Part shown: one piece after another, positions 346-58,154 of the stretch | How positions within the stretch are numbered: position 1 is the first letter of the stretch | Layout of the letters: every line of letters begins with the position of its first letter | Assembly (NCBI GenBank): GCA_001805445.1 | Contig: MHGF01000029.1 | Coordinates: forward strand, 4,270-68,269 | Length of the DNA: 64,000 bases | DNA from: Omnitrophica WOR_2 bacterium GWF2_43_52 | GTDB taxonomy: Bacteria; Omnitrophota; Gorgyraeia; Gygaellales; UBA12090 | Direction of reading: 5' to 3' | Notes under the pieces: model-generated | Databases searched by the model: none | Told to the model about the DNA's origin: nothing | Seen by the model: only the letters and a program-made list of their open reading frames with translations | Made by a program: the position numbers and the translations under genes

Positions 346-1197
346 TTGAGCATGAAGACGACTACTAAGCAGAAAATCGCTTTTAGCATCCTTTTTTTGT
401 GTACTATTATGGTAGTGCTTCCGGTGCTTTTTGTTCTGGGGATTATTATCAAAAATGGCTGGCATGGGATCAACTGGCAATTTTTGACTACCATGCCTAA
501 GGATGGCATGCGCGGGGGAGGGATTTATCCGGCAATCGTTGGGACATTGTATCTGGTTTCCTTATCAATAGTTTTTTCTCTGCCCATAGGGCTCCTTGCC
601 GCCATTTATCTTAACGAATATGCCAAGGATAATTTACTCACCCGCCTTATACGGCTTGCCATTGTTAATCTCTCAGGAGTTTCCTCTGTAGTCTATGGTT
701 TATTCGGTTTGGCATTATTTGTTACGTTTATGAAATTTGGGGTTTCAATCCTTTCCGGAGCGCTTACGTTAGCGATAATGAATCTTCCGATTGTGATTAC
801 TGCCTCAAGAGAGGCATTGGCGAGTGTCCCATATTCTTTTAGGGAGGTAAGTTATTCTTTAGGTTTAAGCCGTTGGCAGACTATCCGGCATTCGGTATTG
901 CCTTTTGCTATCCCCGGGATACTCACCGGCGCGATCCTTAGCTTAGCCAGGGCGGCAGGTGAAACCGCGCCTATTTTATTTACCGTAGCCGCTTTTTATC
1001 TTCCCAAACTTCCGGATTCTATTTTTGACCAGGCAATGGCGTTACCGTATCATCTGTATATTATTTCTACTCAAATCCCTAACATTAGTACGGAAACCAG
1101 GTACGCGACCGCGCTTGTTCTGGTAGGCATTGTTTTTAGTATGAATATTATAGCGGTAGTGATTCGTGCCCGCTTAAGGAAGAGGAAAAAATGGTAA
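346..1197 (+). CDS. pstA: Phosphate ABC transporter permease PstA
   Basis: 283 aa with 6 TM segments. Permease EAA-loop-like region (LSRWQTIRHSVLPFAIPGILTG). Synteny with pstB and phoU. Confidence 0.85.
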   Translation: MSMKTTTKQKIAFSILFLCTIMVVLPVLFVLGIIIKNGWHGINWQFLTTMPKDGMRGGGIYPAIVGTLYLVSLSIVFSLPIGLLAAIYLNEYAKDNLLTRLIRLAIVNLSGVSSVVYGLFGLALFVTFMKFGVSILSGALTLAIMNLPIVITASREALASVPYSFREVSYSLGLSRWQTIRHSVLPFAIPGILTGAILSLARAAGETAPILFTVAAFYLPKLPDSIFDQAMALPYHLYIISTQIPNISTETRYATALVLVGIVFSMNIIAVVIRARLRKRKKW

Positions 1198-16715: not shown

Positions 16716-17142
16716 AAGAGATGATGGAAGCCGCATGGCCTCTTGGGTGCGCGAGGGGAGGCCTGCGGTCAAGAAAATATGGGTTACCAAAGTAACCATA
16801 AAATTACTTATCATAATAATAAGGTTATGGTATACTCTTTTCTTGGCGGAAAGTGTAAAAAGGGCAAATCGGTTTGACCGTTAGCCCCTAGAGAGACAAA
16901 AAAATTACAGTAGTGCACTGTGAAATTAGTTCTCAATAGTTGACAGTGCACTAAGGGGGTGTGGGGAAGACCGTTACCCACGATTGGGGGGTGTTCAGCG
17001 TAGCCGACGATGAGTCGGCGGAGCGCCGAAGGGGGGCTTGCTCCCATAGCGGAAGTGCGGAGTTAACTTTCGCTATACTACCAATAATTAAGTTAACAGA
17101 GCACTAGTGCGGTAATATGTTAAAAGTGCCTGCCCACGGCTT

Positions 17143-56299: not shown

Positions 56300-56420
56300 A
56301 AGGCGGATATTAGGTAATCGGGTGATTGGGATTTGGGTGTCAGGGAATTGGGGATTAGGGACAGAAACCCCCCAATATCCAAATCCCGATACCCTGATTT
56401 CCCGGTCGCCGCATTTAAAT
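56300..56420. repeat. Palindromic array of ATCGGG/TCAGGG units followed by CCCGAT/CCTGAT units, upstream of frr
   Basis: aatcgggtg attggga tttgggtg tcaggga attgggg attaggg ... ccccccaat atccaaat cccgat accctgat ttccc. Confidence 0.6.
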
Positions 56421-56459
56421 ATTATTGATAACATAGAGCAGCAGGATAGAGAGGTAAAT

Positions 56460-57020
56460 ATGGCAGTAAAAGACATAATAAAAGACGCGGATGAAAAGAT
56501 GAAGAAGGCTCTCGAGGCGATGCAGAGAGAATTTTCGGAAATTAGTACCGGGAGGGCAAACCCTCATATGGTAGAGGGCTTGCGTGTTGAGTGTTACGGC
56601 TCTCCGATGCTTTTAAAGCAATTAGCATCGATTAGTGTTCCCGACGCGCGGACACTATTGATTCAGCCCTGGGATACCACAGTCATTCCGGAAATAGAGA
56701 AGGCAATTTTGAAATCAAACCTTGGGGTTAGCCCGGTTAATGATAAGAAAGTGGTAAGGCTTGCAATCCCGCAACTTTCTAAAGACAGGCGCGATGAGCT
56801 GGCCAAAGTGGTAAAGAAAATGGCAGAAGAAGGAAGAATCTCCTTGCGGACTATTCGCCGAGACATGAAAGAAGCTATTGATAAGCTGGAGAAGGATAAA
56901 CGTATTTCAGAAGATGATAAATTCAAAGGCCATGACAGTTTGCAGAAAGTGATGGATTCTCACATAGAGAGAGTTGATCAGATATTGGCAGCAAAAGAAA
57001 AAGAATTGGCCGAATTCTAA
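56460..57020 (+). CDS. frr: Ribosome recycling factor
   Basis: MAVKDIIKDADEKMKKALE is a canonical Frr start. The tracked ORF is extended upstream in frame. Confidence 0.9.
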   Translation: MAVKDIIKDADEKMKKALEAMQREFSEISTGRANPHMVEGLRVECYGSPMLLKQLASISVPDARTLLIQPWDTTVIPEIEKAILKSNLGVSPVNDKKVVRLAIPQLSKDRRDELAKVVKKMAEEGRISLRTIRRDMKEAIDKLEKDKRISEDDKFKGHDSLQKVMDSHIERVDQILAAKEKELAEF

Positions 57021-57021
57021 A

Positions 57022-57117
57022 ACACGAATTATCACGAATGAAAAGCCGAATTAACACGAATAAAAACCATGCGGTTAATTCGTGTTATTTTGATTCAAAT
57101 TCGTGTAAATTCGTGTT
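57022..57117. repeat. Palindromic array of CACGAAT units followed by ATTCGTG units between frr and tRNA-Lys
   Basis: acacgaat tatcacgaat gaaaagccgaat taacacgaat ... attcgtgt tattttgattcaa attcgtgt aa attcgtgt. Confidence 0.65.
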
Positions 57118-57120
57118 TAT

Positions 57121-57193
57121 GGGCCGCTAGCTCATCAGGTAGAGCATCGGCTTTTTAAGCCGAGTGTGCCGTGTTCGAGTCACGGGCGGCTCA
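57121..57193 (+). tRNA. tRNA-Lys (anticodon TTT)
   Basis: Manual fold: acceptor GGGCCGC/GCGGCTC, D-arm GCTC..GAGC, anticodon stem TCGGC/GCCGA with loop TTTTTAA, T-arm CCGTG-TTCGAGT-CACGG. Confidence 0.85.
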
Positions 57194-57196
57194 TTT

Positions 57197-57399
57197 TTAT
57201 AATTTCGCAGGTGACGTAGAACACAAGGGGGTTGAGGGGGAAGCATTTCCCCCTCGCTTTCGGGGTAACAGTCCGCCACGATTTTTGGCGGACGCCATAG
57301 GGGCAGTGGTTCGATTTTGCTTACCATCCTTCGAATCATCCTGAGCGAAGTCGAAGGAAGCCTCTTTGGATAGTGTTCGAGTCACGGGCGGCTCATTTT
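57197..57399 (+). other. 177-nt structured insert bounded by a 26-bp direct duplication of the tRNA-Lys 3' end
   Basis: gtgttcgagtcacgggcggctcattt occurs at 57171-57196 and again at 57374-57399. The insert contains hairpins GGGGGAAGCATTTCCCCC, TCCGCC-N9-GGCGGA and CCTTCGA-N16-TCGAAGG. Confidence 0.5.
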
Positions 57400-57495
57400 A
57401 AGTGTAAAGTGTGTAAGTGTAAAGTGTGTAAGTGGGATGAGTGTGTATGAGATTCACGAAACTTTACACTTACGCACGTACACACTTTTTGTCTG
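57400..57495. repeat. Palindromic array with AGTGTAAAGTGTGTA units (two direct copies followed by inverted copies) plus a T-run
   Basis: agtgtaaagtgtgta agtgtaaagtgtgta agtg ... actttacacttacgcacgtacacact ttttt. Confidence 0.5.
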
Positions 57496-57504
57496 CCTTA
57501 CCGA

Positions 57505-57586
57505 GGGCGGATGGCGGAATTGGCATACGCGATAGCCTTAGGAGCTATTGGGGAAACCCTTGGAGGTTCAAATCCTCTTCCGCCCA
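57505..57586 (+). tRNA. tRNA-Leu (anticodon TAG), long variable arm
   Basis: Manual fold: acceptor GGGCGGA/TCCGCCC, anticodon stem ATAGC/GCTAT with loop CTTAGGA, variable arm GGGGAAACCC, T-arm GGAGG-TTCAAAT-CCTCT. Confidence 0.8.
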
Positions 57587-57689
57587 GTACATCAGAACTA
57601 AGAGCTAAGAATTTAGTTTGTAGCCACAGGTGGCTTTTTAACAATATCCTGCCTTCGGCAGGATAATTGTTGTAAGCAAACATAGCCGA

Positions 57690-57810
57690 TTGTTAAAAAG
57701 CCAAAGGGGTGCGGGGAAGGAATTTTCCCCGCGCTGTTGGGGTGACAGCCCTAACGTAACTTCGGGGCGCCATAGGGGCGAAGCCCCTATGGGGAGTGAA
57801 CGTCCGTCAA
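57690..57810 (+). ncRNA. Candidate structured RNA element, paralogous to part of the 57197-57372 insert, with RNase P RNA S-domain-like motifs
   Basis: AAAGGGGUGCGG...CCCCGCGC, GGGGUGACAG, CGCCAUAGGGGC-GAA-GCCCCUAUGG. It aligns with the earlier insert over GGGGTAACAG ... CGCCATAGGGGC. Confidence 0.35.
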
Positions 57811-57886
57811 TAGGAGATAAGTTTTTGATAAGGCAAAAAGCTTTATTTGTTTACTTGCTAGCCTTGAATAGTCTATAGTGAACGAC

Positions 57887-57959
57887 GCGGGAGTAGCTCA
57901 GTTGGTAGAGCGCAACCTTGCCAAGGTTGATGTCACGGGTTCGAATCCCGCCTCCCGCT
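57887..57959 (+). tRNA. tRNA-Gly (anticodon GCC)
   Basis: GCGGGAGTAGCTCAGTTGGTAGAGC...CCTTGCCAAGG...TTCGAAT...CTCCCGC. Close to the canonical tRNA-Gly(GCC). Confidence 0.85.
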
Positions 57960-58154
57960 TATTTACCCCAGTAGAGAAAGCCACCGAATTTATTCGGTGG
58001 TCATCACCTTATAAAGTCGACGGTGGTTTAATGCCACCGTTGGCGCGGACCGTTAGAGAACGTAATTCTCTAACGGGGTTTACTTTAGCGTGGAAGTTTT
58101 CATTGTATTTTTAGTTTAACAAGTTGTTGCTATCGGTATTGTGTTGAAGGAGGA

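Follow-up and report, generated by a model that had tools for sequence, protein, structure and literature searches.

tRNA genes are classic landing sites of phages and genomic islands, which bring their own integrase, and Williams is said to have described, in 2002, sublocation preferences for integration within them. Folded single-strand recombination sites are found in the CTX-phage attP hairpin and in integron attC, which serve here for a comparison by anatomy. Among structured RNA motifs, Clostridiales-2 (RF02937) is reportedly a candidate small RNA (sRNA) from Weinberg et al. 2017. Here we analyse a window of 64,000 nucleotides (nt) from Omnitrophica WOR_2 bacterium GWF2_43_52 (contig MHGF01000029.1, positions 4,270 to 68,269 of the forward strand), in which the segment 57198-57399, directly 3' of a tRNA-Lys gene, is one copy of a large family of small elements that encode no protein. 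The element resembles tRNA-targeting integrative elements (phages, integrative and conjugative elements and genomic islands with a tyrosine integrase, and cis-mobilizable derivatives such as CIMEs) in its intact tRNA, in a repeat that runs from the T-arm to the 3' end, in occupied and empty alleles and in tandem arrays. The family is apparently undescribed, with the orphan motif Clostridiales-2 as its nearest named entity; we found no prior description of such tRNA-linked elements in the searchable literature, the coverage of which is incomplete and does not include the Weinberg 2017 supplements. The tRNA-Lys gene, both repeat copies, the parts of the element and the two further core copies of the window all lie on the forward (+) strand.

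The target gene is an intact tRNA-Lys(UUU) at 57121-57193 (ARAGORN; 59 bits with the Rfam tRNA model), identical in two metagenome contigs, L001 and L002, in which the site is empty. Its last 23 nt together with the following TTTT form a 27-nt sequence, GTGTTCGAGTCACGGGCGGCTCATTTT, which a repeat search finds at 57171-57197 and again at 57373-57399 with 27/27 identical positions. The first copy (X) comprises 3 bp of the 5' strand of the T-stem, the T-loop, the 3' strand of the T-stem, the 3' strand of the acceptor, the discriminator and TTTT, and the second copy (also X) leads into the sequence that follows the tRNA in the empty-site strains. The two copies are 202 nt apart from start to start and enclose 175 nt. 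The original prediction, made from the letters alone, had described a repeat of 23+3 nt around 177 nt: the repeat at the tRNA-Lys 3' end is real and its coordinates were right within 1-2 nt, whereas the lengths are 23+4 and 175 nt. In shuffles of the window, the expected number of matches to the 23-mer with at most 3 mismatches was 0.00, against 2 observed. The insert is also as highly structured as had been claimed, folding with a minimum free energy (MFE) of -87.8 kcal/mol, compared to -61.7 +/- 4.3 in shuffles (z = -6.1). We rejected the second repeat copy as a second tRNA gene or transfer-messenger RNA (tmRNA), as ARAGORN detects neither in the insert; this copy lacks a 5' acceptor strand, so that, from its sequence, it is not predicted to form a minihelix.

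Related strains, which the original prediction had proposed to compare, reveal the empty site. Three metagenome contigs (L001-L003) encode a Frr protein 99% identical to that of the window, and the flanking DNA of L001 and L002 is 97-98% identical (about 97.5%). In these two contigs the tRNA-Lys gene is followed directly by TTTTTAAGTGTAAAGTGTG..., and the junction in L001 reads ...GGCTCATTTTT|AAGTGTAAAG..., the right side being the window sequence after 57399. By alignment, the whole segment 57198-57399 is missing there, a difference of exactly 202 nt that corresponds to the 175-nt element plus one repeat copy. At a larger distance, L004 (~70-74% identical over the flanking genes) has an empty tRNA-Lys site, and L006, at a similar distance (~70-74%), carries at the same site a shorter, diverged relative of the insert; behind it come a second, decayed tRNA 3' end (GGTGTTCAAGTCACGGGC--CTCATTCTT) and then host sequence as in L004. 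Occupied and empty alleles differ by exactly the element and one repeat in both comparisons, window versus L001/L002 and L006 versus L004, and occupancy is polymorphic inside a species-level population. The site is patchy, being occupied in the window and L006 and empty in L001-L004; it was occupied repeatedly or for long. The difference between the window and L001/L002 is either a precise insertion or a precise loss.

The tRNA-Lys insert has relatives well beyond this site. Scanning with the pattern GGGGTRACAG-N10-30-CGCCAKAGGGG, with one genome per species, we found the core GGGGURACAG-hairpin-CGCCAKAGGGG in at least 120 loci of at least eight phyla. The carriers listed include Omnitrophota, Planctomycetota, Acidobacteriota (Holophagaceae, Geothrix, Solibacteraceae), the candidate phyla radiation (CPR), Elusimicrobia, Rokubacteria, Actinomycetota and others, and some genomes hold several core copies among the matches listed. 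After 124 instances had been oriented and ARAGORN had been run on all of them, 34 copies were found to follow an intact same-strand tRNA at a distance of 46-138 nt, with tRNAs of 11 specificities upstream (Leu, Met, Arg, Thr, Val, Ser, Lys, Gln, Trp, Asn and Phe). For 27/34, the core is followed by a direct repeat of the 3' part of that very tRNA, with an exact-match part of 16-55 nt, and ~40 copies have a tRNA-3'-end-like repeat if tRNAs that are cut by a contig end or interrupted by an intron are counted; the tRNA upstream of the L101 element, for example, was missed by ARAGORN because of a group I intron (397-632, minus strand, 92.6 bits in Rfam). The repeats begin in the T-loop, T-stem or variable loop and mostly end within ~7 nt of the tRNA end, and in many members a small hairpin interrupts the T-loop of the second copy (GGTTC-TAGGCCGAAGGCCG-GAATCC). 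In L019 and L115, complete units are arrayed in tandem. The tRNA-linked members have one order: spacer, an antisense arm (X'), a G-rich multi-hairpin core and a tRNA copy that runs from the T-arm to a few bases past the 3' end, with the upstream tRNA gene staying intact. We considered whether copies without a repeat are longer autonomous relatives and rejected this, since L108 is a 3'-truncated copy and L057 and L085 are old, diverged copies; no 5'-truncated or poly-A copies were seen among the family members.

When an intact tRNA precedes a second copy of its own 3' end and this copy starts in the T-arm, the pattern is the classic footprint of attachment (att) sites. The segment could be read as what is left of a prophage or integrative element after decay or excision, with attL and attR kept and the interior deleted. 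We consider this highly improbable. Instead of gene debris, the interior holds a conserved, covarying motif found in at least 120 loci across many phyla, it comes with an antisense arm specific to the element, and the 175 nt overlap with no open reading frame (ORF) of 80 aa or more. Phage or plasmid similarity was likewise not found, with 0 pattern matches in viral contigs and no BLAST match in phage or plasmid collections. Of the options raised in the original prediction, a decayed remnant is thus contradicted by the conserved covarying core and a local duplication is not supported, whereas a miniature non-autonomous element at tRNA-Lys is supported by the empty site, by the L006 relative in the same site and by the relatives at many tRNAs (27 with a repeat). 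The antisense arm, the optional module described below and the extent of the family had escaped the original prediction. The element differs from tRNA-targeting integrative elements in size, 175 nt compared to kilobases, and in build: it consists of a structured core and a target-matched arm, with one closely related core serving many tRNA targets, and there is no integrase in or near it. Clustering all-vs-all the 1,926 ORFs of 120 loci of ~8 kb and inspecting them by eye, without a Pfam scan, we found no recurrent mobility gene: no integrase inside the elements or recurrently near them, and no recurrent transposase-like or reverse transcriptase-like ORF. The neighbours that did recur, again by eye, were histidine kinases, ABC transporters, Ser/Thr kinases, GpsA, homoserine dehydrogenase, extracytoplasmic function (ECF) sigma factors and Frr. 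That no protein family of mobility recurs near the elements supports their being non-autonomous.

The paralog downstream of tRNA-Leu that had been suspected from the sequence is real, as the family covariance model (CM), R1, scores 102 bits there (57676-57810) and 81.8 bits on the insert (57199-57387). Both copies have AAGGGG(G)U, a GGGG/CCCC hairpin, GGGGURACAG, a second hairpin and CGCCAUAGGGGC. Across the family, the core consists of G1, P1, G3 (GGGGURACAG), P2 and P3 (CCAKAGGGGC...GCCCCUWUGG), often followed by P4 (GAGCGA...GAGCGA). In the tRNA-Lys copy of the window, an AT-rich spacer, TATAATTTCGCA (57198-57209; ~5-60 nt in other members), leads from the tRNA end to the antisense arm X', GGTGACGTAGAACAC (57210-57224; GGTGAC GTAG AACAC), the complement of the T-arm GTGTTC GA GTCAC, which in the MFE fold pairs with GTGTTC..GTCAC of the second repeat copy (57373-57385). 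There follow G1, a conserved unpaired purine run AAGGGGG (57225-57231), placed by the conserved alignment and the CM columns; the P1 hairpin UGAGGGGG...CCCCCUCG (57233-57256), defined by covariation and closed by a conserved U.G pair; the G3 box GGGGTAACAG (57262-57271), part of the search pattern; and the P2 hairpin UCCGCC-ACGAUUUUU-GGCGGA (57272-57292), again defined by covariation and with a tandem G.A base in most relatives. In P3 (57293-57369), 57295-57304 (CCAUAGGGGC) is paired with 57360-57369 (GCCUCUUUGG), including a U.U pair. The P3 loop contains an optional 55-nt module (57305-57359; a 54-nt insert in the CM alignment). L103, which is a tRNA-Val element from another genome, has a P3 insert that matches this module at 92% identity over 37 nt. 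The P4 hairpin that is common among relatives is absent from the tRNA-Lys copy of the window.

Helices P1 and P2 are supported by covariation. We used two alignments, one of 54 members made with MAFFT (A3) and one of 100 members guided by R1 (A4). In A4, 364 cells carry double changes, compared to 131 +/- 9 in shuffles (0/500 as high), and 86.6% of the cells are paired, compared to at most 64% when the partners are slid. Compensatory change occurs in all 14 pairs of P1 and P2 (nine in P1, five modelled in P2), with strong covariation in both alignments; in P1, 93-96% of the A4 cells are paired and all nine pairs show double changes. P3 hardly varies, which is partly due to its sequence having been fixed in the search pattern. 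The base of P2 is formed by tandem G.A pairs (columns 171/227 and 172/225) which, like the conserved U.G that closes P1, exist on the tRNA-sense strand only, and G.U exceeds A.C by 29:13 with one pair set aside. The folding strand is the tRNA-sense strand. Furthermore, three positions covary: R in GGGGURACAG (A or G only, by the search pattern), K in CCAKAGGGG and W in CCCCUWUGG. Their combinations in 111 members, G,G,A in 59, A,U,U in 30 and G,U,A in 6, suggest a tertiary contact of R onto the non-Watson-Crick P3 pair, with a hint of a base triple.

The antisense arm matches the tRNA next to which it is found. In most tRNA-linked members, the core is directly preceded by a segment with GAACC at its end, which is GGTTC in reverse complement. 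From there the arm continues with complementarity to the T-stem, to the variable loop or even to the entire 3' strand of the acceptor, reaching 18 consecutive bp in the predicted duplex of L101. Upon pairing the arms in silico with the last 30 nt of tRNAs, we obtained a mean duplex energy of -19.4 kcal/mol for the own tRNA and -14.6 kcal/mol for other tRNAs (33 non-redundant cases). The own tRNA was in the top 3 of 33 for 19/33 arms (permutation p<1e-4), and it was first of 33 for the window arm. The arm also tracks variants of the T-stem, with AACAC/GTGTT in the window and AACGC/GCGTT in L035, L046 and L125. We used this tRNA-specific permutation test instead of generic flank pairing, which is uninformative with a long or short left flank, and only the tRNA-specific test reached significance. 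The stem of arm and repeat closes the element, always across the junction between element and repeat; in the tRNA-Lys members its centre is mismatched, with GAG opposite CGA. In the window the repeat is perfect, whereas X' is imperfect yet fits this T-stem variant, indicating that X' is borne by the element and not made at insertion. In L024, the arm (~60 nt upstream of the core, as oriented) is perfectly complementary to the 3' end of a tRNA, CCA included (GGGTTCGAATCCCTCTCACCA). The tRNA that it matches differs from the tRNA-Ser next to the element, and the second copy of the repeat appears to be a chimera. L024 may record a switch between tRNAs with a common T-arm.

The core also occurs in other carriers. 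The second copy in the window lies between tRNA-Leu and tRNA-Gly (57632-57886, core 57676-57810) and ends at a -10-like box and the leader of tRNA-Gly. Its orthologue in L004 (3831-4080; 113 bits) is flanked by a ~22-nt direct repeat of the tRNA-Gly leader, including the -10-like box. The left one of these two repeats is decayed in the window, and the core copy is not in L001, L002, L003 or L006. Similar copies are located upstream of tRNA-Gly in L089 and L123. A third, divergent core copy (16926-17069; R1 26.9 bits, E ~1e-5) lies, with its flanks at ~16912-17108, in an unrelated intergenic region away from tRNA. Like miniature inverted-repeat transposable elements (MITEs), it has inverted repeats at its ends, consisting of TAGTGCACTGTGAAAT and of AGTTAACAGAGCACTA in reverse complement. 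In Holophagaceae (L011, L013, L015, L033, L034, L040 and others), the core sits in a ~290-nt MITE-like element with inverted ends, TAGTGGTGCCCGCGCGAAAT ... GGCGAGGTGCACTAG, and CTAG on each side, often directly after a stop codon, and a further Omnitrophota subtype adjoins the 3' end of a convergent tRNA. The family as a whole is like MITEs in being small, non-coding, multi-copy and structured, but terminal inverted repeats and short CTAG/TA-type flanks are found only in other carriers (the Holophagaceae subtype and the copy at 16926-17069). In tRNA-linked members, the role of the 'right inverted repeat' falls to the duplicated target, and the length of this duplication is 27 nt here and 16-44 nt in the family, compared to 2-10 nt for MITEs.

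The relationship to Clostridiales-2 is distant. Rfam at its gathering threshold returned only tRNAs and one group I intron from the window and 17 related loci, and at E up to 10 only weak Clostridiales-2 and chance microRNA matches from 56950-58150, without any group II intron or retron. The Rfam scan of the insert that had been suggested at the outset therefore gave a weak match to Clostridiales-2 and no family at threshold: RF02937 scores 25.0 bits at 57220-57361 and 20.9 bits at 57697-57780, where its gathering score is 58.6. Within these cmscan matches, every part is in register (the G-run, hairpin 1, the GGGUG..CAG box, hairpin 2 and the CG.C..AGGG box). The likeness thus lies in the order of the parts and partly in sequence (a GGGG(G)UG run, a GGGG/CCCC hairpin, GGGUG..CAG, a covarying hairpin, CG.C..AGGG), and both groups are multi-copy; the third window copy, with its boxes GGGGTGTTCAG and CGCCGAAGGGG nearer to the Clostridiales-2 consensus, is intermediate in sequence. 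In contrast, Clostridiales-2 has its own P3 sequence and is a stand-alone unit of Clostridiales with a terminator, whereas the window copy is inside an Omnitrophota tRNA cluster, ends in a tRNA fragment and does not reach the RF02937 gathering score. A metagenome scan for the Clostridiales-2 consensus yielded at least 120 loci (L127-L246) from digester and bioreactor metagenomes, where these RNAs are abundant and multi-copy; a conserved palindrome (YAGGAAAGTATACTTTCCTR) precedes them and an intrinsic terminator follows. Of 121 loci, one was near a tRNA. R1 scores at most 17.5 bits on these loci, consistent with a distant relationship, and no tRNA-derived flanks were seen in the Clostridiales-2 sequences inspected, where no repeat or arm analysis was made. 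One subgroup has longer near-identical flanks in about ten contigs, which suggests that it rides in a larger repeat. A small ORF behind Shine-Dalgarno-like boxes was tried and rejected for lack of a conserved start or stop; an ATG...TAG frame is present in some Clostridiales-2 loci and lost in others.

These relatives bear on whether the element moves by itself at all. The core might be an old non-coding RNA gene of tRNA operons that is not self-mobile, with the repeat arising from partial tandem duplication of the tRNA, the strain differences from deletion via the repeat, and the spread from strain to strain from homologous recombination. A precise deletion between the 27-nt repeats would recreate the L001 sequence exactly, the Leu-Gly copy was kept in place in L004 despite only ~70-74% identity of the flanking genes (with similar copies in L089 and L123), and the Clostridiales-2 cousins resemble stand-alone RNA genes with terminators. 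Independent partial duplications, however, are not expected to produce the same architecture, with matched arms, at 11 tRNA specificities in several phyla, nor do they sit well with the tandem arrays of complete units (L019, L115), with several copies per genome, some of them in MITE-like carriers, or with a tRNA-Lys site that is occupied in the window and L006 and empty in L001-L004. We therefore regard a core without mobility of its own as rather improbable.

The reading that we favour, with a little more confidence than doubt, is a non-autonomous element that enters tRNA genes by T-arm recombination via the folded X':X stem, using a recombinase supplied in trans. The element would enter by recombination inside the T-arm region, and its own tRNA-like segment would replace or duplicate the 3' end of the gene, as in tRNA-targeting integrative elements. 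The X':X stem would serve as the recombination site by imitating, as a folded single strand, the double-stranded segment of the tRNA gene, and the recombinase would come from elsewhere. By its anatomy, such a stem would be comparable to the CTX-phage attP(+) hairpin (XerCD) and to integron attC, in which inverted segments of one strand pair and imitate a duplex target. A CTX-type exchange gives the order target, loop, inverted arm, rest of the element, target, which corresponds to X, spacer, X', core, X; this is the order that would be expected from a single-strand exchange of the folded X:X' stem with a double-stranded tRNA gene. The target itself differs, being a tRNA gene here and dif or attI for CTX attP(+) and attC. 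Since the element follows the tRNA in the same orientation, read-through from the tRNA promoter may yield a transcript of the core, which may act as an RNA.

Several observations weigh against T-arm recombination through a folded stem. No recombinase, reverse transcriptase or transposase was identified anywhere, and the mechanism is hence argued from anatomy alone. The allele difference would also fit a precise deletion via the 27-nt repeat. Some repeats run on beyond the tRNA end, by 11 to >39 nt in L125, L037, L120 and L028, and include genome-specific bases (11 nt in L125, 6 nt in L035, 27 nt in L037 and L120); repeats of this kind fit better with a true target-site duplication or with tandem arrays than with an att identity block. 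Generic pairing of left and right flanks over all subtypes is weak (median z = -0.7). The scan pattern fixed P3 and G3, so that their invariance is partly imposed. As to whether the fold belongs to RNA or to single-stranded DNA, the signs are mixed: G.U pairs are rare (~2% of cells) and GC-GNA-GC triloops, which are very stable in DNA, are common, while on the side of RNA the Clostridiales-2 cousins end in intrinsic terminators, like RNA genes.

The repeats that pass the tRNA end also feature in the main rival explanation, an RNA-templated insertion, in which the element is co-transcribed with the tRNA, released by tRNA processing and reverse transcribed. The tail X would pair with the antisense strand of the tRNA gene and X' with the sense strand, a nick in the T-arm would prime an enzyme supplied in trans, and a second, staggered nick past the tRNA end would lead to the duplication. 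We judge this unlikely overall, though it accounts for much: the constant orientation just downstream of a highly expressed gene, the variable repeat length (16-44 nt) with genome-specific bases past the tRNA end in several cases, a pair of segments, X and X', that together can address both target strands, and the lack of an encoded protein, as in elements like short interspersed nuclear elements (SINEs). It also predicts host downstream sequence after the second copy, as observed. On the other hand, no reverse transcriptase recurs near the elements (120 loci), group II intron and retron RNAs are absent from the Rfam matches of the window, no copy with poly-A or a truncated 5' end was seen (one copy, L108, is 3'-truncated), and most repeats end within ~7 nt of the tRNA 3' end, for which an att identity block or the end of homology is the simpler explanation. 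Of the features of group II introns and retrons, catalytic intron domains and msr/msd RNA were not found by Rfam in 56950-58150 even at E up to 10, no reverse transcriptase-like ORF recurred in the 120 loci, and folds like those of hepatitis delta virus (HDV) and hammerhead ribozymes or of group II domain 5 (D5) were rejected by eye because the required P1 or core pairings are absent. A doubtful but related proposal is a programmable, nucleic-acid-guided mobile RNA or single-stranded DNA, in which X' and X recognise both strands of the tRNA gene by pairing and the core acts as scaffold or catalyst. A widespread host enzyme or one acting in trans would then insert the element, and changed arms would bring a new tRNA target.

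The three tRNA genes of this intergenic region, tRNA-Lys, tRNA-Leu(UAG) and tRNA-Gly(GCC) according to ARAGORN, are flanked upstream by rpsB, tsf, pyrH and frr and downstream by genes for a phosphotransferase system protein (PTS-EIIA), a CofD-like protein, HPr and PtsI; the closest named homologues of Frr belong to Candidatus Omnitrophota. The frr ORF (56322-57020) has a GTG start and encodes 232 aa, with the same start in public gene calls (P0001); since most listed Frr homologues are 186 aa long, the ATG at 56460 is the likely true start. Between frr and tRNA-Lys, 57022-57115 is an imperfect palindrome of CACGAAT/ATTCGTG units, which stands in the opposite orientation in comparison to L001-L003 (96.8% identity on the opposite strand) and of which a 41-nt partial copy occurs at 289-329, near the window start. 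The segment 57399-57428 contains TAAGTGTAAAGTGTG twice, a 15-nt tandem duplication that is a single copy in L001/L002 and is located at the foot of a long GTGTAAAG-type hairpin (57399-57488). Directly 3' of tRNA-Gly, 57967-58083 is a 117-nt insertion of three hairpins with TTTAC at both ends; it is not in L001/L002, two of its three hairpins match a terminator-like scan, and no further copy was found in the window or the fetched loci.

Overall, the same landing site that serves phages and islands is used here with less than 200 nt and no protein, in at least 120 copies from at least eight phyla, mostly uncultured, and the orphan Rfam motif Clostridiales-2 becomes linked to mobile DNA. Annotation of the family is advisable, lest its tRNA fragments pass for prophage scars. 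Even if the mechanism is ordinary, the family would still account for much of the hitherto unexplained structured DNA that separates tRNA genes in Omnitrophota and Planctomycetota. Should the target be set by the arm and the tRNA-like tail, the elements would constitute a naturally re-targetable insertion system, and their core would be a new functional RNA or DNA fold.

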